A DNA stretch of 29,086 bases from a virus. Lineage: Duplodnaviria > Caudoviricetes. Every line of letters starts with the position of its first letter. The first letter of the stretch is position 1. A program made the position numbers and the translations under genes. Below the pieces are notes generated by a model, which was not told the DNA's origin, did not search any database, and saw only the letters and a list, made by a program, of their open reading frames with translations. The DNA lies in the IMG/VR virus record IMGVR_UViG_3300020185_000192, positions 1-29,086 of that record; one strand, written 5' to 3'. Of this stretch, positions 2,663-26,269 are shown one piece after another.

Positions 2663-4171
2663 TTATTTATTATCGACTCTTTTCATAAGGTCCATAATTC
2701 TTGAAGTTTCTTTATCAACATAAGCAGTACTTTCGTTTAATTGCTTAGAAGAGCTAGATGTTACTTCTTTATTCATTTTATTTCCAATTGATTCGTTCAT
2801 TGGTTTTCTTGAACCTAATTCACTTGCAATTGTTTTATATAACTTTTTCGATTCCTTAAGAGTTGAAACTTCATTATCAAATCTATTAAAGATTCCTTCT
2901 TTTTCATCTCTTGTAGTGGAATGTTCCATAAATAACTTAGTTGTATAAGTTAAATTAGAATTAAAAACTACTGTCTCCGCTAACATTGTTCTAAATTGCT
3001 TAAGTGCTTTCTTGTACTCGCCATTCTTAGCCTTAAGGTCTTTAGCCTCTGTTAATAGAGTATTATATTTTTTGTTAGATTCGTTAACTTTTTCTCCAGC
3101 TGGTTTATACTTATCAGCAACTGGGTTTTTACTCCCTTTTTGTTTTGGTAAAGCATAAGCACCTTTAGTTCTAGCAATTTCAGATACTCCTTCACCTTCA
3201 GCAACTCCATCTTCTTCAGTTAAATCATTTTCATTACAGTCTTCGTCAACTTCTTTTTCATTCATTACCATTTGACCTTCACCCTTACCGTGCGCTTGGT
3301 CTTCTTCAAATCCACCTTCTAAGTTATCACCAGCCCAGTTATCATCTTTTTTGTTTCCTACTGGAGCAGTAACATCATCAATGCCTCCTGTTTGTAAAGT
3401 ATTTTCATCTAACGCTATTTCATACACAACATTTTCTTCATCTTCTTCGTCACCGATTGCATCTAAATCAACTTCTCCATCTACAGCATCAACTGCATCT
3501 AAATCCATATCACCATCTACATCGTCAATGTCCATATCAACATCCATTTCCACTTCTCCATCTACAGCATCAACTGCATCTAAATCCATTTCTATATCAT
3601 CTGAATAATCATCCTCCACTTCTGGAGTACTCTCGCCAGTTTTTATTACAAACTCGCCTGGTTCATTAACTGTAAGTTTTACCTCACCAGCTTCGTCATC
3701 GACTACTACTTCGATTTCATCATCACCAGTTAACTTTTTGTAAACTGAGATAACGTCTTCATCAGATGCCATCGTCATATCCATCTCAACTTCATCGTCT
3801 GATGCTACCGCATCCATTCCAGATTCGTAATCACCTTCAAGGTCACCACCTATTTCTAAGTCTTCGATTTCTTTATCACCAGTTAGTTCAGCATCTAAAT
3901 CAAGTTCCATATCATCTCCTTCTGGAGCTTCTACTTCTTCTGGTTCTTCTGCATCCATATCATCTCCTTCTGGAGCTTCCATTTCTTCTGGTTCTACTGC
4001 CTCAACATCCTCTTCTGTATAATCTTCTTTTAAAGATTCTTTCACTAATTCGTCAATTTCTTCTTTCGCAACGGAACGAAGTATTTCTTTCGAGTTGGCA
4101 TTTAGAGCTTCCTGGATTCTTTTCGCATCCATTATTGCTTCTTCTAAAATTGATTTTTTTTTATCAGCCAT
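2663..4171 (-). CDS. Prohead scaffold/core protein (very acidic)
   Basis: Lies between protease and capsid genes; D/E-rich low-complexity centre, coiled-coil termini, many [LIVM]-x-E sites (VKES, LKED, VNES, LLTEA, TLKES, QLNES). Confidence 0.8.
   Translation of the reverse strand: MADKKKSILEEAIMDAKRIQEALNANSKEILRSVAKEEIDELVKESLKEDYTEEDVEAVEPEEMEAPEGDDMDAEEPEEVEAPEGDDMELDLDAELTGDKEIEDLEIGGDLEGDYESGMDAVASDDEVEMDMTMASDEDVISVYKKLTGDDEIEVVVDDEAGEVKLTVNEPGEFVIKTGESTPEVEDDYSDDIEMDLDAVDAVDGEVEMDVDMDIDDVDGDMDLDAVDAVDGEVDLDAIGDEEDEENVVYEIALDENTLQTGGIDDVTAPVGNKKDDNWAGDNLEGGFEEDQAHGKGEGQMVMNEKEVDEDCNENDLTEEDGVAEGEGVSEIARTKGAYALPKQKGSKNPVADKYKPAGEKVNESNKKYNTLLTEAKDLKAKNGEYKKALKQFRTMLAETVVFNSNLTYTTKLFMEHSTTRDEKEGIFNRFDNEVSTLKESKKLYKTIASELGSRKPMNESIGNKMNKEVTSSSSKQLNESTAYVDKETSRIMDLMKRVDNK
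3471..3589. repeat. 38-bp exact direct repeat inside the scaffold gene (encodes MDLDAVDAVDGEV twice)
   Basis: acttctccatctacagcatcaactgcatctaaatccat at 3471-3508 and 3552-3589. Confidence 0.9.
3908..3979. repeat. 24-bp direct repeat inside the scaffold gene (EAPEGDDM twice)
   Basis: catatcatctccttctggagcttc at 3908-3931 and 3956-3979. Confidence 0.85.
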
Positions 4172-4978: not shown

Positions 4979-5677
4979 TTATGTTTTATATTTCCATTTA
5001 AACCCACCAGCACTTTTTTTCCTACCAGCACAAACATCACCGATAGTACAACGATTAATATTTAATCCTTTAGAAGCGATTATTAACCCACTCCATTCTT
5101 TTATTATTTTACCATCTAAATCAAATTGAATTATAGGTCTATATTTTTTACTTGATTCTGACCTAACTTTACCATACATTGAATTATTTTCACCACACCT
5201 ATCTTTAGACATTTTATTTTTAGTTTCTTGAGTGTGTTGTGTGTTTAGTCTAGCTTTTGAGATTTTGTCCTTAGTCTCTTGACTCATCTTTTTACCTTTT
5301 TTACTTTTTGATATCTTTTCATTAACAATAGTTCCTAAATTACCACCTTCACCTCCATCGGCAATATTAGTAAGACTTAAACCCTTTTCTCTTAATTCAT
5401 TAATTAATTTACGTTCAGATTCACCCCACTTACTTTCTGGAACTACTTTATAAATTTCTAATATGGGAATTTGATTTCGTTTTAATAAAGATTGTATCCA
5501 ATTATCTTTATGTGTATTCTTTTGTTTAGATTTTCTAATATGTTCTTTAAGTCGTTTATAGACATCCTCAGACTTACCAACATATCTAACCTCACCAGTA
5601 TCTGGTTCGTTAAGTGTGTATAAATAAACAACACTTACACTTTGACCTGGTTTAATTATTTTTATTTCATCTGACAT
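4979..5677 (-). CDS. GIY-YIG homing endonuclease with NUMOD3/NUMOD1-type DNA-binding modules
   Basis: YLY...RYVGKS...RLKEH GIY-YIG core, LTNIADGGEG, repeats SQETKDKISK / HTQETKNKMSK / GENNSMYGK, C-terminal IIQFDLDGKIIKEW...KSAGGFKWKY. Confidence 0.9.
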   Translation of the reverse strand: MSDEIKIIKPGQSVSVVYLYTLNEPDTGEVRYVGKSEDVYKRLKEHIRKSKQKNTHKDNWIQSLLKRNQIPILEIYKVVPESKWGESERKLINELREKGLSLTNIADGGEGGNLGTIVNEKISKSKKGKKMSQETKDKISKARLNTQHTQETKNKMSKDRCGENNSMYGKVRSESSKKYRPIIQFDLDGKIIKEWSGLIIASKGLNINRCTIGDVCAGRKKSAGGFKWKYKT

Positions 5678-6386: not shown

Positions 6387-6722
6387 TTAACTTTTAAATA
6401 ACGCTATGAATATTCCGAAACCTACCTGAACCACTGTCCATACAGTTATAGCTACAGTTTTAAAAACATTTAACGAAGCTACATCTTTTTTAATTTCTTT
6501 TAGTGTATTAGGACTAGCTATATCGTCCATATAACGCTTCCACTTACCTATTGCTTCCAAATCCCTTTCTATCGTATCTACCTTACCTAGTTTTAGGTTA
6601 ATCTCATTAAGGGTCTCTTGAATCTTCTCATCGTTATCATTCAACCTTTCTAGTTCAGCCAATACTAATTTAGAATACTCATTCCACCCATTCTGTGGGA
6701 CTCCTTCCTTACTCATCTCCAT
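6387..6722 (-). CDS. Small coiled-coil protein with C-terminal transmembrane helix (holin/XhlA-like architecture)
   Basis: Heptad-like N-terminal region (LAELERLNDNDEKIQETLNEINLKL), hydrophobic C-terminus VFKTVAITVWTVVQVGFGIFIALF. Confidence 0.65.
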   Translation of the reverse strand: MEMSKEGVPQNGWNEYSKLVLAELERLNDNDEKIQETLNEINLKLGKVDTIERDLEAIGKWKRYMDDIASPNTLKEIKKDVASLNVFKTVAITVWTVVQVGFGIFIALFKS

Positions 6723-6724
6723 TT

Positions 6725-7174
6725 CTATAAGTTTGTTAAATCTATGTGCATACCAACCATCTTGATTGGCTCACCATTATTATTCCATTCTATAACCTTT
6801 CCCCTACAAAGTATTTTAACTTCATGTCCATTTTTATGTTTATATCTAGCCACAATTCTAAATGGATAATCACCATTACTATCGATATGTTTTTTTAATT
6901 CACAGTTCATCTTATCCAAATCATCATTTAACATTAAATCATTCCAGGTTTCTGGGGTATTAGGTAACTCATGGTCTTTGTACCCTAGTTGAAGTTTGTA
7001 GTTAGGGCTTAAGAACGCTGTACCATGTTCCATATCCCATTCCCATAACCCATCAGAACTTGCTTCAAGTATAGCCTCTAAAGTGTCTTTTCTTCTGAAT
7101 ACAGAAGTGTCTCTAATAGTTAACTGTTCCACTAAAACTTTTAATTTATTTATGTTTTCTGATTTAGATGACAT
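6725..7174 (-). CDS. Stand-alone PAS domain protein (PAS_3-like)
   Basis: ILEASSDGLWEWD...FLSPNYKLQLGY...W...DD...RYKHKNG...ILCRGKVIEWNNNGEPIKMVGMHIDLT is the classical PAS/PAC pattern of sensor kinases and diguanylate cyclases; no output domain. Confidence 0.88.
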   Translation of the reverse strand: MSSKSENINKLKVLVEQLTIRDTSVFRRKDTLEAILEASSDGLWEWDMEHGTAFLSPNYKLQLGYKDHELPNTPETWNDLMLNDDLDKMNCELKKHIDSNGDYPFRIVARYKHKNGHEVKILCRGKVIEWNNNGEPIKMVGMHIDLTNL

Positions 7175-7175
7175 A

Positions 7176-7928
7176 TTACATTAAATCTTCTTTTAAATCT
7201 AATATTTTAAATATGTCTTTATCAAAACTTTCTTTAATATATTTTCTATTTAATAAATTATCTTTAACGGACAGTAAACTTTCTTTTAAATCAGTGTTAG
7301 CGTCTTTAAGTTTATCGTTAACTAATACTAAACATTCTTTAACTGTTTTTGAAAATAAAGCAATGTTATATGTTTCATTATTTTCTATAATTACCTTAAG
7401 TGTATCTATTTGTGATTCCGTTAAGTCACTATACTTCTCATTGAATCTATCAACAACTAAAGGTGCAAATATTTTATTAGATATACCAACACCCTCATTA
7501 ACTTGTCTATATACATTTGATTTAACATACTCTATAGTTTCGTTTAATGAATCAACAAACTTATTGATATTCTTAGAGAAAATCATATTAGTAATATTCT
7601 CATGTAGTTTATCGTTTACATAAGACTCTTTAACGGTTCTGCCGTTAGCTAACTTAAATAAAGTAGTATTAGCTTCTAATATATCTTGTCTATCATACGA
7701 CTTTAATAAATCGATATTTCTCTTTATCTTTTCACTAGCTTTAAATTGGTTATCCTCCGTCAATGATTCGATTGATGTGTATATATTGAATTGAGTTTTT
7801 AATATCTCATTTTCCTTAATCATTTTTAAATAGTTCTTAAAGGCATCTCTCTTATCGGCATTCTTAGAGCCCATAGATTCTGATAACATTGTATTAAAAA
7901 CATTTTTAATTTTACCGAAATTTCTCAT
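7176..7928 (-). CDS. Putative prohead core/head assembly protein
   Basis: Immediately downstream of portal; helical, many x-x-E sites (MLSES, IKEN, VKES, VNEG, LTES, LKES); ATATTTAT motif upstream. Confidence 0.6.
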   Translation of the reverse strand: MRNFGKIKNVFNTMLSESMGSKNADKRDAFKNYLKMIKENEILKTQFNIYTSIESLTEDNQFKASEKIKRNIDLLKSYDRQDILEANTTLFKLANGRTVKESYVNDKLHENITNMIFSKNINKFVDSLNETIEYVKSNVYRQVNEGVGISNKIFAPLVVDRFNEKYSDLTESQIDTLKVIIENNETYNIALFSKTVKECLVLVNDKLKDANTDLKESLLSVKDNLLNRKYIKESFDKDIFKILDLKEDLM

Positions 7929-7947: not shown

Positions 7948-7955
7948 ATAAATAT
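7948..7955 (-). promoter_or_regulatory. ATATTTAT putative late promoter
   Basis: Recurrent motif, 19 nt upstream of the ATG at 7928. Confidence 0.7.
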
Positions 7956-19075: not shown

Positions 19076-21646
19076 ATGGATAAAAATAGAGAAATAGTAC
19101 CAAAGGTAAAATACATAATGAATAAGTCTCAAGAAGAGGCTAAACATTATGGAGATAACTATGTTAGACAAGAACATATATTATTATCAATTATTAATGA
19201 CAATACTAATAGGTGTCATAGAATACTTAAAGGAATGAAAGTAGATGTTAATGATTTATACGACAAAATTACTGAATATATTAGGTATCGTCAATTAAAT
19301 ATAGGTTCTGAAAATAAAAAAAGATTAAAATTACCCTTTAGTAGTGAGGTTAAAAAAACACTAAAGAAAATTGATTCAGAAGCTGAAAAGCTAAATGACC
19401 ATTTTATTGATACAACACATATAATGTTATCAACGTTAACTTATGTTAAGTTAGATTTGGTTAAATTATTAAATAATGAAGGAATAAACTATGATAATTT
19501 TAAAGAGCAGATTATGAAAAACAACAAGAATGAGGATAATTATTCACTAGAAGAAGAGTCAATAGATATTGAAAGGACGAGAGCTAGGATTGAAGAGGTT
19601 AGAAGTGAGTTAGATGATGAAGATGAATTCACCATGGGTGGAAGAGGTGGAAATGGTAAATTTGAAAAGAAAAGTAACAAAAAGGTTAGTTCTAAAACAC
19701 CAGTATTAGATAACTTCTGTAGAGATATATCTAAATCAGCTGAAGATGGAATACTTGACCCAGTTGTTGGTAGAGCCACAGAAATTAAAAGAGTGTCTCA
19801 AATTATTGCTAGAAGAAAAAAGAATAACCCAGTTCTTATCGGTGAGCCAGGTGTTGGTAAAACTGCAATAGTTGAAGGTCTTGCTATGTTAATTAAAGAA
19901 GGTAAAGCACCTAGAATTATTCTTGATAAACGAATTTACTCATTAGATTTATCTTCGATAGTTGCTGGTACAAAATACCGAGGACAATTTGAAGAAAGAA
20001 TGAAAGCTATATTAGATGAACTTAGAAATAACCCAAATGTAATACTTTTTATTGATGAGTTACATACGATTGTAGGTGCTGGTAATGCATCTGGGTCAAT
20101 GGATGCTGCTAATATATTTAAACCAGCATTAGCTAGAGGTGAAATACAAGTAATTGGTGCTACAACCCTTGATGAATTTAGAGAAAAAATTGAATCTGAT
20201 GGTGCCCTCACAAGAAGATTCCAACAAGTATTGATAGAGGAACCAAGTATTTCAGAAACTAAAACAATCCTTATGAATATCAAGGAAAAGTATGAAGACC
20301 ACCACAAAGTAATCTATACTGAAGAAGCTATAGAAGAATGTGTAAAGTTATCTGATAGATATATTATGGATAGGTCAATGCCAGATAAAGCAATTGATGT
20401 TCTTGATGAGGCTGGTGCAACAACCAACGTAAATCATGAAGCTCCAGAAAGTATTAAAAAATTAGAACATGCTTTAATAAAAATCAATGAAGATAAGAAG
20501 ATTGTTGTTCAGAAACAAAAATACGAAGAAGCGGCAAAACTTAGAGATGAAGAAAGAAAAATAGTCGAAAAATTAGACACTGAAAAATCAGATTGGCTTG
20601 AATCTCTTGATAAAAAGAGGACAATAGTTGATGTTGAGTTGGTTGCTGAAGTTGTTTCAATGATGTCTGGTATTCCTCTTAATAAAATTTCCTCACAAGA
20701 AACTAAGAGACTTATGAATATGGATAAGGAACTTACGGGTAAAGTGATTGGTCAAGATGAAGCTGTTGTAAAAGTAGTTAAAGCTATTAAACGTAATAGA
20801 CTCGGAATTAAAGATAAGGGTAAACCAATTGGTTCATTTATTTTCTTAGGACCTACTGGTGTTGGTAAAACTTATTTAACTAAATTACTTGCAGAAAGTA
20901 TGTTTGGTGATGCCGAATCACTTGTTAGAATAGATATGTCAGAATACATGGAGAAACATTCCGTATCAAGACTTATTGGCCCACCACCAGGATATGTTGG
21001 TTATGAAGAAGGTGGACAATTAACAGAAAAGATAAGAAGAAAACCTTATTCAGTTATTCTTTTTGATGAAATTGAAAAAGCACATGACGATGTATTTAAC
21101 CTATTACTTCAATTACTTGATGAAGGTCAATTAACTGATGGGTTAGGTAGAAAGGTAAACTTTAAGAATACCCTTATTATTCTTACATCTAATGTTGGTG
21201 TTAAAGAATTAAGTAGTTTCGGTAAAGATATGGGATTCAATACGGGTGCTGCAATTGTTAATGAAGAAGAAAAATCTCGTTCGATTATAGAAAAAGCCCT
21301 TAAGAAGAAGTTTAAACCAGAATTTCTTAATCGTATTGATGATACAATCATCTTTAATGGACTTAAAAGAGATGACATACATGTTATCATCCATAATGAG
21401 TTAGATAAGCTTAAAAGTAGAGTTATTGATGAATTAGGAATTACCCTAAAAATTAATAAGGCTGCTATTGAATATGTTGCTGACCAAGGTTATGACCCAG
21501 AATTTGGAGCAAGACCACTTAATAGGTCAATTCAAAGACATATCGAAGACCCAGTAGCTGATGAGATTTTAAATGGTAATTTTGTTGAAGGTGACACAAT
21601 TAAAATTGGTTACGACAAGAAGGAATCTAAAATCGTGTTAAGTTAA
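19076..21646 (+). CDS. clpC: ATP-dependent Clp protease ATPase subunit, ClpC type
   Basis: Clp-N repeats (EHILLSI), AAA1 GEPGVGKT / FIDELH, UVR-like middle domain ([13 protein letters not shown]), AAA2 GPTGVGKT / [11 protein letters not shown] ClpP-docking loop, GARPL. Confidence 0.95.
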
Positions 21647-21722: not shown

Positions 21723-22967
21723 ATGATAGAAGATATATTATTATCAAAGTACGGTGAACACATAAATGGAATAGATATTTATGAAAAGGAATCCAGTCTT
21801 ATACTATCCAAGATTGTTGTCAATGATGACTCAAAAGAAGAAGGTTATGGTACTAAAATTATGACTGACTTAATTAACTACGCTGATAAGAATAATAAAA
21901 TTATAGCATTAACACCATCGGCTGATTATGGTGGTAATAAAAATAGACTTAACAGGTTCTACCATAGATTCAACTTTAAACCCAACAAGGGTAAAAACAA
22001 GAATTTTGAGTTCCGTGAAGCGATGATAAGGTATCCAGAATCTGATGTGATTAAGGAAGGTAAAATTAATGACATCCTTAAAGATAAAGTATTTGATAGA
22101 CAAAAGTTTATTCAAAATATAAAGAATGGTAGTTCTCAAACTAAAGAAGCTTATAAATTACTTCATGGTAGTATTGTTAATAATGTCGATTTAAGTGATG
22201 ATGAAAAAGACTTCATTAATAATAATTTAAAAAATATATTTACAGCGTTAGGTTATGGTGCATTATTTATGGTACCAGGTGGATTAACACTTATAGGGTT
22301 AACTAAAATATTAACACCAATATTTAAAAAGAAATCGGTTATGAATGAACAGGATAAATTAAATGGTGGTCTTGCTGATAACAAAAGTAAGAAAGACATA
22401 GCTAATAAGTTTGGTATTACAGTTGCTAAGATTAACAAAGAACTTAAGATGGGTGAAGACGTTGAAATGGAACATGTAACCAATAGAACGTTATCTAGAG
22501 AGATAGCTATGGACCACCTAGTTGAAATTCCAGATTATTATACTAGACTTAAGAAGATGGAGAAAGAAGGTGATAAGTACTGGAAAGATAAAACAAAAAA
22601 ACTTAATGAATCAATAAGAGATTTTATTAAAAGAAGAATTAAAGAAAATATAACCCTATCGTTAATGGATGAAACTCCAGTGACCACAGCATTTAATATT
22701 ATGCACAAGGAAAATGTTGTTGGTCAGATAGAAGTTGGGAAATTCAACAAAAAACTTAATGATGATGATTTAGAGATTGTTCTAATAAAAATTGAAGAGC
22801 AATTTAGAGGTGTTAAATTAGGTGCTGAAACAATCAAAGCATTATGGGTTCAATTTCCAGATATAAATAGATTCATCCTTATGCCAACTCAAGAAAGTAA
22901 AGACTTTTGGGAAAGGATTGGAGCAGTAATACTTAATGATACGTATTACATGATTAATAGAAGTTAA
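21723..22967 (+). CDS. Multidomain protein: GNAT-like, helical/hydrophobic unit, DUF5661-like unit, second GNAT-like
   Basis: GNAT 1 IVV...KEEGYGTKIM...RLNRFYHRFNF; MGEDVEMEH...AMDHLVEIPDYYTRL unit; GNAT 2 IKIEEQFRGVKLGAETI...SKDFWERIG. Confidence 0.75.
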   Translation: MIEDILLSKYGEHINGIDIYEKESSLILSKIVVNDDSKEEGYGTKIMTDLINYADKNNKIIALTPSADYGGNKNRLNRFYHRFNFKPNKGKNKNFEFREAMIRYPESDVIKEGKINDILKDKVFDRQKFIQNIKNGSSQTKEAYKLLHGSIVNNVDLSDDEKDFINNNLKNIFTALGYGALFMVPGGLTLIGLTKILTPIFKKKSVMNEQDKLNGGLADNKSKKDIANKFGITVAKINKELKMGEDVEMEHVTNRTLSREIAMDHLVEIPDYYTRLKKMEKEGDKYWKDKTKKLNESIRDFIKRRIKENITLSLMDETPVTTAFNIMHKENVVGQIEVGKFNKKLNDDDLEIVLIKIEEQFRGVKLGAETIKALWVQFPDINRFILMPTQESKDFWERIGAVILNDTYYMINRS

Positions 22968-23704
22968 AGACCAACCTTACTTAATCTATCTTTAATACCC
23001 CTTATATATTTATGTTTTATTTTTAAACCACCAGAGTTTACGTACTTATTTAAACCACCAGACCCAGCATTATAGGTAATCAACGCATCAATTATTGGTT
23101 TTGTCTTTAATTTTGAACTCATAATCTTACCCCACATAGCCATATTGTTATTCTCATCCATTAACCAAACCTTAGTCATGTTAATCTTTTTTGTTTTACT
23201 ATATATTTTACTATAAGCAAAAGAAAAATCAGTAACACCCAATTCTCTAAAACACTCTTTATCTTCCTTACTAACTTTCTTTATCATATAACCATAAGCA
23301 GTTGATGGAAGTATTTGAGTAAACCCAATTGCGCCAGCACTACTAACAACTAACCTACCCTCTTTTGGGTGTGTTGGTTGGTAATACTGTTTAGCACCAG
23401 ACTCTAATAGAATTTGACCTATGGACCACCTAACCGTTTCTTTATCGTTAAGTCCAAAACAATTAACAACGTCAGCGAATCTTAACGCAGTAACACTGTC
23501 CACATACGGGTTATACTTTTTAAAGGAGTTATAAATAATAAGGAAATTATCTGGTAGATAGTTTTCTTCAACACAAATTGAATTAACCTCAACTGGTTGA
23601 CTTAATTTTACTTTAATACGAGTTTTTTGGGGTGGGACCTTAACTGATGATAAAAAACTTACAGCGAATAATAGTCCAATTAGGTTTAATAGTTTATTTT
23701 TCAT
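22964..23704 (-). CDS. Lytic transglycosylase (SLT-like) with N-terminal signal peptide/anchor
   Basis: QILLESG catalytic Glu motif, SSAGAIGFTQILPSTA, ALITYNAG; MKNKLLNLIGLLFAVSFLSS; start reassigned to 23704. Confidence 0.85.
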   Translation of the reverse strand: MKNKLLNLIGLLFAVSFLSSVKVPPQKTRIKVKLSQPVEVNSICVEENYLPDNFLIIYNSFKKYNPYVDSVTALRFADVVNCFGLNDKETVRWSIGQILLESGAKQYYQPTHPKEGRLVVSSAGAIGFTQILPSTAYGYMIKKVSKEDKECFRELGVTDFSFAYSKIYSKTKKINMTKVWLMDENNNMAMWGKIMSSKLKTKPIIDALITYNAGSGGLNKYVNSGGLKIKHKYIRGIKDRLSKVGL

Positions 23705-23708
23705 GGTA

Positions 23709-23740
23709 CAAATATACACATAAAAATCCAGTAAACCAAA
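23709..23740 (-). promoter_or_regulatory. Bacteroidota-type promoter for the transglycosylase
   Basis: Minus strand TTTG-N20-TATATTTG, 4 nt before the ATG. Confidence 0.8.
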
Positions 23741-24835: not shown

Positions 24836-26269
24836 TTACATCTTTACTGATGGTAATAATCTTTTTAATTTACGATAATTATCCTCTCCTATTTCTTTAC
24901 GATTAGCAACCATTCTATGTAGGCACCCACCATTTGTTTTATCAAGATATTTAATCTCATCTGGAATGTCTTTTATTTTATTCCCTTTAATATTAAGCAT
25001 TATTAGGTTTTTAAGTTTACCAATCTCTTTTGGTAATGAAGTTAATTTATTATCTGGTAATAATAATTCCTGTAACGTACCCAATGAACCAATAGATGGA
25101 TGAAGCTCAGTTAATTTAGCCCCATTAATTATAAGTGTATTAAGTTGATTAAATCTTGAGATGTCTGGTAACTTGGGTACATCTCTATTACTAAACCTAA
25201 TTATAGGTGTGTAGACTTCAATTATATCAAATAAAGCTTCAGTCCACCCAAACTTAATTAAATAGTCAATGTATAAATTATTCGTTATGTCTTTACTAGC
25301 CTTAGCCATTGTTGTTAACTCTTCATTAAAGAAATTTGCAATGCCTTCACTTTTTAATATAACATCACCGAAAAAAGTACCACTACCCTTTCCGTTTTGT
25401 TTTCTATTCTTTAGTTGTGAGGTCTCAAAATGTATTTGATATAAATAATTATCCTCCAGCTCACCTTCAAAAAACCTATTATCAATTATAATATAAATAT
25501 CAGATAATTTACCGTTAGGTTTTTTATTATTCTTTGTGTAGTTATCAAACATACCATTACCTGGGTTACACGTACACCAATTAGCAAACTTACTAAAGAT
25601 TACGTTAGCGTCTCTAGACTTAGGCATATACAACGTAAACCTCCTATCCCTAACTGGGATTTCAGCTTGACCAGCATCAACATATCTCTGCATAAGCTTC
25701 TCCATTTCTGAAGGGTCCCTATCAATGAATGGGTCAACCGCATCATATAATTGAGAAAGAGACTTATATTGATTTATGTTAGTTGGGTCTTTAACATTTC
25801 TAAGAGTAAAACTACTAACACAAAGTTCTTTAAACTTCTTCTTCCTCTTATTAGTTTCGAATAGTTCTAGATATTCTTTAGCTAATGGTAAATCTTCTTC
25901 AGCAAACCTTAGTGAGGCATCAAATTTCTTTTCTTTTAAGAGTCTATAGAATGTAGTAAGCATCCATTGGGTGTATTGTTTATTAGTTGTTAAATCAGAA
26001 TCCACCATTGCTTTAAATATAACATATGAGATACTAATCTTTGACTTAACCCTTACATATTCGCCATACTCTTCATTAATTCCACTAGTTTCTGTGTTAG
26101 AGATAAGTGCGATAACGTTATCATTGTTACCCATGATTGGAATCACAATAGTAACGCCAGATTCAGTTAGTTCATCAGTTTTTATTTTTACACCCTTTTC
26201 ATCAGATTCAAAAACATCAAATTTCTCAGCTAAGAACTCAAGCCTATCTGCCACATCAACTTTACCCAT
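24836..26269 (-). CDS. Phage protein with C-terminal leucine-rich repeats
   Basis: Central INQYKSL...NWCT...YQIHFE domain; LRRs LTELHPSIGSLGTLQELLLPDNKLTSLPKEIGKLKNLIMLNIKGNKIKDIPDEI. Confidence 0.8.
   Translation of the reverse strand: MGKVDVADRLEFLAEKFDVFESDEKGVKIKTDELTESGVTIVIPIMGNNDNVIALISNTETSGINEEYGEYVRVKSKISISYVIFKAMVDSDLTTNKQYTQWMLTTFYRLLKEKKFDASLRFAEEDLPLAKEYLELFETNKRKKKFKELCVSSFTLRNVKDPTNINQYKSLSQLYDAVDPFIDRDPSEMEKLMQRYVDAGQAEIPVRDRRFTLYMPKSRDANVIFSKFANWCTCNPGNGMFDNYTKNNKKPNGKLSDIYIIIDNRFFEGELEDNYLYQIHFETSQLKNRKQNGKGSGTFFGDVILKSEGIANFFNEELTTMAKASKDITNNLYIDYLIKFGWTEALFDIIEVYTPIIRFSNRDVPKLPDISRFNQLNTLIINGAKLTELHPSIGSLGTLQELLLPDNKLTSLPKEIGKLKNLIMLNIKGNKIKDIPDEIKYLDKTNGGCLHRMVANRKEIGEDNYRKLKRLLPSVKM

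Follow-up and report, generated by a model that had tools for sequence, protein, structure and literature searches.

In the head operon of a giant uncultured phage of a jumbo clade we found a gene pair that likely ties the moment of host burst to an intracellular signal, because the pair recurs in unrelated phages, carries interchangeable sensor domains and often stands beside cell-wall-cutting enzymes. The first gene encodes a stand-alone PAS protein (hereafter the partner) and the second a small membrane protein (hereafter the TM protein). We give about even chances to the proposal that the TM protein is a lysis component resembling XhlA, on which a cytoplasmic regulator docks and which this regulator tunes through a plug-in domain. 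Known control of lysis time operates through holin accumulation, antiholins that answer superinfection, or transcriptional switches; if the proposal is true, phages would have a new means of matching burst time to host physiology, through a ligand-binding domain in the cytoplasm that docks directly on a lysis membrane protein. No description of such a pair was found in the literature searched, which excluded subscription journals and supplements, and the term PAS is absent from the main text of an overview of jumbo phages (PMC7824862).

Genomic setting of the gene pair

The window, i.e. the whole stretch of 29,086 nucleotides that was analysed, is a T4-like phage head operon according to its Pfam and PHROG matches. 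Its gene order is terminase, portal, a 250-aa unknown, PAS, TM, an unknown, GIY-YIG, prohead protease, probable scaffold and gp23 (Table 1). Both ORFs of the pair are real and lie where the first-pass annotation had placed them: the 250-aa ORF ends 1 nt before the start of the PAS gene and the TM gene starts 2 nt past its stop. The same annotation had called the upstream 250-aa gene a head-module gene; its position agrees with this, but no Pfam match above cut-off and no PHROG match identifies it.

Table 1. Features of the gene pair and its surroundings in the window
Feature	Position	Strand	Basis
Partner gene, 149-aa stand-alone helix and PAS_3	6725..7174	-	ORF call, Pfam, AlphaFold2, Foldseek; purifying selection among relatives
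N-terminal helix of the partner, residues 4-39, putative docking helix	7058..7165	-	AlphaFold2 model; motif L-x-x-L-x-x-x-L-x-x-R-D common to partners with other cargo
PAS/PAC core, residues 40-146	6737..7057	-	Pfam and model; ends where cellular kinases run on into the next coiled coil
TM gene, coding for 111 aa; helical, a single transmembrane segment at the C-terminus, XhlA-like architecture, family unnamed	6387..6722	-	ORF call, hydropathy, Atlas features
Best-conserved stretch of the TM protein, residues 11-28, putative docking site	6639..6692	-	Alignment of 107 rows
Predicted transmembrane helix, residues 90-108	6399..6455	-	Hydropathy
250-aa gene, function not assigned; first gene of the probable transcript	7176..7928	-	ORF call; position conserved only in the close clade
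TATTTAT motif, candidate late promoter	7948..7954	-	26 nt before the 250-aa gene

The closest capsid proteins of deposited phages (36-43% identity) belong to an uncultured 484-kb phage, Flavobacterium phages, a phage deposited under Microcystis, and RM378. A completeness of 48% is estimated for a 158-kb relative, which puts the genomes of the jumbo clade at probably some 330 kb. Shine-Dalgarno sequences are missing at the loci examined, as is typical of Bacteroidota. This feature, the presence of Bacteroidota among the best cellular PAS matches and the prediction, in a passage of PMC7198788, that Far-T4 phages infect Bacteroidetes together point to a probable host in the Bacteroidota.

The TATTTAT motif stands ahead of the 250-aa gene in the window and in 15/15 relatives examined. 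Its 8-base form occurs 16 times in the window against 7.6 expected. Together these findings suggest a single late transcript; the late expression that had been proposed for the module is therefore probable. The octamer concerned, TATAAATA, is the T4 late-promoter octamer, and most of its 16 sites are found on the non-coding strand. In its coding-strand form, TATTTAT, the motif stands 10-70 nt ahead of many window genes and is possibly the clade's own late promoter. A sigma-70 promoter scan stayed at chance level. In metatranscriptomes we observed low-depth contig pieces inside both genes, in three runs of one study; as DNA carry-over is possible in these runs, we make no claim of expression.

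Elsewhere in the window there are genes for a leucine-rich-repeat protein (24836-26269) and, in a phage genome, for a full ClpB/ClpC-type ATPase (19076-21646). A GIY-YIG homing endonuclease gene (4979-5677) lies between a 146-aa gene and the prohead protease gene; it reflects a recent insertion or loss, since the near-identical relative L001 is devoid of it. Inteins are probably present in L016, L029, L032-L034 and L037, where the portal ORFs measure 1,100-1,655 aa and the prohead proteases about 610 aa.

Architecture of the two proteins

The partner matches PAS_3 (PF08447) at residues 54-142 with an E-value of 2.8e-16 and 60 bits, against a gathering cut-off of 25.6, and no second Pfam domain was found in the 149-aa protein. 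The AlphaFold2 model (pLDDT 83) consists of one helix and a complete PAS fold, whose best Foldseek match in the PDB is 3mr0 (E 4.8e-12). With the stop codon coming after the PAS domain, it is indeed a PAS protein without output domain, as first described; the complete PAS fold of that description stands, but the helix, said to be short, has 36 residues. The partner has no hydrophobic segment, and none of the 30 window proteins scanned has a Pfam match to HisKA or HATPase. The LOV flavin motif, G-x-N-C-R-F-L-Q, is absent from its sequence and from the alignment of its relatives. Short stand-alone LOV proteins (7yx0) have the fold in common with it and differ in this motif. Stand-alone viral PAS models are present in BFVD under generic names, and a PAS search of 50,697 cultured-phage records matched two weak, unannotated ones. 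VqmA is a PAS-HTH transcription factor that times the lytic decision at the lysis-lysogeny switch. That of phage VP882 (PDB 7dwm) is likewise a phage-encoded PAS protein; unlike VqmA, the 149-aa protein has no DNA-binding domain and its putative target is a membrane protein.

Several variants of the partner were observed. Two divergent helix-PAS_3 genes stand in tandem ahead of one TM gene in L002 (5532-6441), L003 and L009, and the PAS_3 partners of L019-L024 and L374 have an insertion of 38-49 aa past the first strand. L434 (1779-2972) encodes 397 aa, with the partner helix followed by several PAS domains, and in L407 (988-1539) a PAS_3 domain of the same type is fused to its own N-terminal transmembrane helix.

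A single hydrophobic stretch occurs in the TM protein, at residues 90-108 with a mean Kyte-Doolittle value of 2.15, and W13, V20, E23 and L24 are invariant in 107/107 aligned rows. The sequence itself and weak coiled-coil Pfam matches of relatives suggest that it forms a coiled coil. We infer that it is tail-anchored with the N-terminus inside. The XhlA-like architecture proposed in the first-pass annotation was recovered: the protein is small and helical with a single C-terminal transmembrane helix, and by language-model features the nearest named family in the Atlas is XhlA (score 0.92, 169 shared features). No Pfam family was matched by the 111-aa protein, XhlA (PF10779) being unmatched at E 0.01, nor did five relatives match PF10779 at E 0.1; one relative matches the PHROG families 'hemolysin' and 'holin', only at E 0.003-0.004.

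Passages in PMC6316719 and PMC5589764 describe XhlA/XhlB of PBSX and gp24.1/gp26 of SPP1 as two-component holins, in which the C-terminally anchored XhlA and gp24.1 disrupt the membrane only with the second holin. The TM protein resembles XhlA and gp24.1 in its size, in its C-terminal helix and in having relatives in endolysin-holin cassettes. Unlike XhlA, it has an invariant N-terminal motif of its own in place of a PF10779 match and a cytoplasmic helix partner with a sensor fold, and its family occurs in probable Gram-negative hosts, the jumbo copies lying far from recognised lysis genes. Clustering at 50% identity leaves 770 representatives of the family, which come from jumbo as well as small phages; neither its long nor its short form matched any of the 50,697 cultured-phage records. 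We considered gp108 of the cultured Cellulophaga phage phi19:1, which has a PAS-like Foldseek match, as a cultured instance and rejected it as a look-alike, no TM-family motif being seen in the listed ORFs. At that locus (L417, 5167-6925, gp105-gp108) three small membrane genes are followed by the membrane-tethered gp108, at the end of the tail module.

Coupling and selection

A PAS_3 gene lies directly upstream of the TM gene in 33 of the 37 closest TM loci, and three of the four others are one genotype in which a 19-codon remnant of the PAS C-terminus is left (L032). In the reverse search, 46 of 51 distinct short PAS_3 proteins adjoin a TM-family gene (41 by script, five on inspection), this PAS_3-seeded set overlapping the TM-seeded loci; the five that do not are two contig-end fragments, a piece of a cellular kinase, an 82-aa fragment and a membrane-fused PAS. 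The two-gene unit proposed at first is thus borne out by co-occurrence. In addition, the TM gene comes next in 42/42 and 5/5 loci found with two other PAS types. The two genes stay together in relocations between the head operon, the capsid-neck junction and lysis cassettes, and the pair is not tied to the head operon. The order is reversed, with the TM gene before the PAS partner, in L411 (2064-2848) and L441 (about 3000-3599).

Across the 14 least saturated pairs, dN/dS lies at 0.03-0.33 for the PAS gene and at 0-0.11 for the TM gene; over all 95 pairs, the PAS gene has a median of 0.27 and a maximum of 0.59. These values come from relatives in the family, the window's own copy having no relative at a suitable distance. 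We observed purifying selection on the residues of the PAS core, and length and ends are conserved at 35-99% identity. A decaying fragment of a host kinase, which the first-pass annotation had envisaged, could be read into the isolation of the window's copy and into the lineage that has lost its PAS gene (L032), but these data refute decay for the family and we give it almost no credence.

Exchangeable domains on a shared helix

From searches seeded with TM proteins we kept the best 80 of 274 and the best 80 of 248 matches; the resulting 157 loci fall into 95 clusters at 95% identity. Among these clusters the upstream gene encodes a PAS protein in 63, a helix-only protein of 50-100 aa in 26 and a truncated product in four, and no partner is present in two. 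The PAS proteins are of three types, a second type of about 180 aa (41 clusters), PAS_3 (19) and a third type (three). The 180-aa type has a PAS fold, judging from its model and Foldseek, and profile comparisons between PAS types align mainly the N-terminal helix. A search led by the 68-aa form of the TM protein (best 80 of 351 matches) reached many unrelated small phages; we examined 44 new loci, 36 of them of the short type and 30 non-redundant. At these 30 loci the neighbour is a PAS protein in seven cases and a cupin in ten by Pfam (two more by eye), the rest having another neighbour or none. PAS and cupin are both ligand-binding folds and come without an output domain at these loci.

The helix was scored with a 13-column profile trained only on the jumbo PAS partners, against a background of 1,621 ORFs; the first 65 residues were scanned in partners and 45 in the background, which slightly favours the partners. 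Scores above the 99th percentile were obtained for 10/12 cupin partners, 25/27 helix-only partners and 3/3 partners of the third type, and the signal is weak elsewhere (small-phage PAS 3/7, small-phage PAS_3 0/2, further helix-only 0/6). On the TM tree, a quick tree with few columns and many open forks, at least 27 changes of the cargo label are required, where seven would be the minimum. As judged from the sequences, the constant part of the partner is its N-terminal helix and the PAS domain is exchangeable cargo.

These replacements bear on the idea, raised in the first-pass annotation, that the PAS protein is a decoy which poisons host sensor kinases by heterodimerisation, its TM neighbour being functionally unrelated. 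The partner does look like the N-terminal helix-PAS module of Bacteroidota kinases of about 380-400 aa, cut at the end of the PAS domain; it shares the fold, the helix-before-PAS layout and the domain end point with sensor-kinase PAS_3 (3mr0; the Bacteroidota helix-PAS-kinases L153 and L363), and 79 of 80 cellular relatives are multi-domain proteins. It differs from them by the missing kinase and a phage-specific N-terminal motif. Its identity to cellular PAS domains is only 30-48%, and the phage copies are not nested in a cellular clade in a quick, weakly resolved tree of 122 columns. The probable late expression also speaks against a decoy, and the linkage to the TM gene outlasts both relocation and replacement of the PAS domain by other PAS types, cupin or nothing. 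Because the PAS domain is replaceable while the N-terminal helix and the TM gene are kept, the decoy is unsupported, and we judge it very unlikely.

Sensing itself is dispensable, since 26/95 clusters have no sensor domain and 2/95 have no partner. A simpler partner can be imagined, one that acts through its helix as an antiholin or chaperone for the TM protein and senses nothing, its PAS or cupin domain serving to dimerise or stabilise the helix. The helix-only clusters favour it, as do the ten changes of the helix-only label on the TM tree, at least four of them forced by strong branches, and a PAS domain that evolves about three times faster than the TM protein and tolerates the 38-49 aa insertion. 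We nevertheless find this reading rather unlikely: what is recruited time and again is a ligand-binding fold (PAS of several types or a cupin) and not any oligomerising domain, the PAS core is under purifying selection and some genomes keep two divergent tandem copies.

Predicted docking on the TM protein

The 2:2 complex of the partner and the TM protein was predicted with a score of 0.43 (runs 0.43, 0.27 and 0.46), versus 0.00 for the best control; the runs agree in at least 81% of contacts and the pLDDT of the partner is at least 87. In the calibration, the mark was reached by 116/157 solved pairs and 2/215 mismatched pairs, just 18 of the solved pairs and both mismatches lying at 0.60 or below. 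As such scores are common to these 18 solved pairs and both mismatches, and as the job differs from the calibration, the prediction gives weak support to the interaction that the first-pass annotation had supposed. The conservation of a helix in each of two genes that are always adjacent suggests a docking pair, in which the N-terminal helix of the partner likely docks on the N-terminus of the TM protein. For inter-chain mutual information (107 pairs, Neff 74) the strongest signals fell on a column that hardly varies, and we discarded the result as phylogenetic noise.

Link to lysis genes

The TM family is linked to endolysin genes in other, small phages and not in the jumbo clade. A peptidoglycan hydrolase is present among the scanned neighbours (at most two genes before and three after, part of them submitted) in 8/30 short-TM loci, two of which also have a PHROG holin, and absent in 22/30. 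In the metagenomic contigs L388 and L389 the order is PAS_3, short TM, one gene and an M15 endolysin. When the whole records were searched with four endolysin families, 9/30 short-TM records gave a match; the method is insensitive and missed the L476 lysozyme, which has a Pfam match. The endolysin lies less than 1 kb from the TM gene in 5/9 records versus 0.84 expected (P 3e-4), under a uniform placement that ignores late-gene clustering and with L419 and L420 being kin; without the two shortest records the count is 3/7 (P 0.004). The remaining endolysins are 3.9 kb (one) and 8-21 kb (three) from the TM gene. No lysis gene adjoins the pair in the window or among the labelled neighbours in the clade, jumbo loci showing morphogenesis neighbours only, and no lysis family was recognised among 95 of the 161 ORFs of the 158-kb relative. 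The window also encodes (22964-23719) an SLT-like transglycosylase, below the Pfam cut-off, with an N-terminal hydrophobic segment, a candidate exported endolysin. From the neighbours of its relatives and its architecture, the TM protein may have a role in lysis.

The jumbo loci invite a different view, in which the TM protein has no part in lysis and anchors or times virion assembly at the inner membrane under regulation by the partner, as the T4 portal starts the prohead with gp40. The pair here lies between portal and prohead protease, which we take to be the place of the core genes 67/68 in T4; it follows the capsid gene in other jumbo clades, and the TM gene is among head or connector genes in several small phages. 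As T4 prohead formation begins on the inner membrane (a passage in PMC9958956), we keep a small share of probability for this role. Against it, the TM family also occurs in phages whose head systems are unrelated and within endolysin-holin cassettes, and the position is too variable for one structural partner.

Proposed mechanism

In the lysis proposal, the TM protein would be a tail-anchored XhlA-like component of host lysis, and the partner helix would grip its cytoplasmic N-terminus as a cytoplasmic antiholin does. A PAS or cupin domain fused to the helix would alter this grip in response to a host metabolite, a metal or the redox state. Binding of the predicted signal to the PAS domain would thereby bring lysis forward or hold it back, and partners with the helix alone would represent the default without regulation. 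A bolder version, which we find possible but doubtful, is a widespread one-step phage signalling in which a universal docking helix with a plug-in PAS or cupin domain would read the host metabolic or redox state, gate a holin-like membrane protein directly and so set lysis time, without transcription or phosphorylation.

The periplasmic domain of the T4 holin T senses superinfection. T has the antiholins RI and RIII, of which RIII is cytoplasmic (PMC8385771). As with T and RIII, a single-pass membrane protein would here be under a small separate protein; unlike T, the TM protein has no periplasmic domain and its regulator carries PAS or cupin. Pfam and PHROG searches gave no sequence match to the T, RI or RIII families. 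The TM protein is not filed under XhlA, because the XhlA profile test failed, and the proposed working is that of XhlA plus RIII.

In the small-phage cassettes (L389, L419, L420, L432 and L447) the question comes down to four or five short genes, which makes it testable. In L431 (2555-3566) and L447 (2567-3975) a cupin partner and the TM gene are followed by a stand-alone response-regulator receiver domain, a further signalling part in the cassette, and in L447 a lysozyme comes next.
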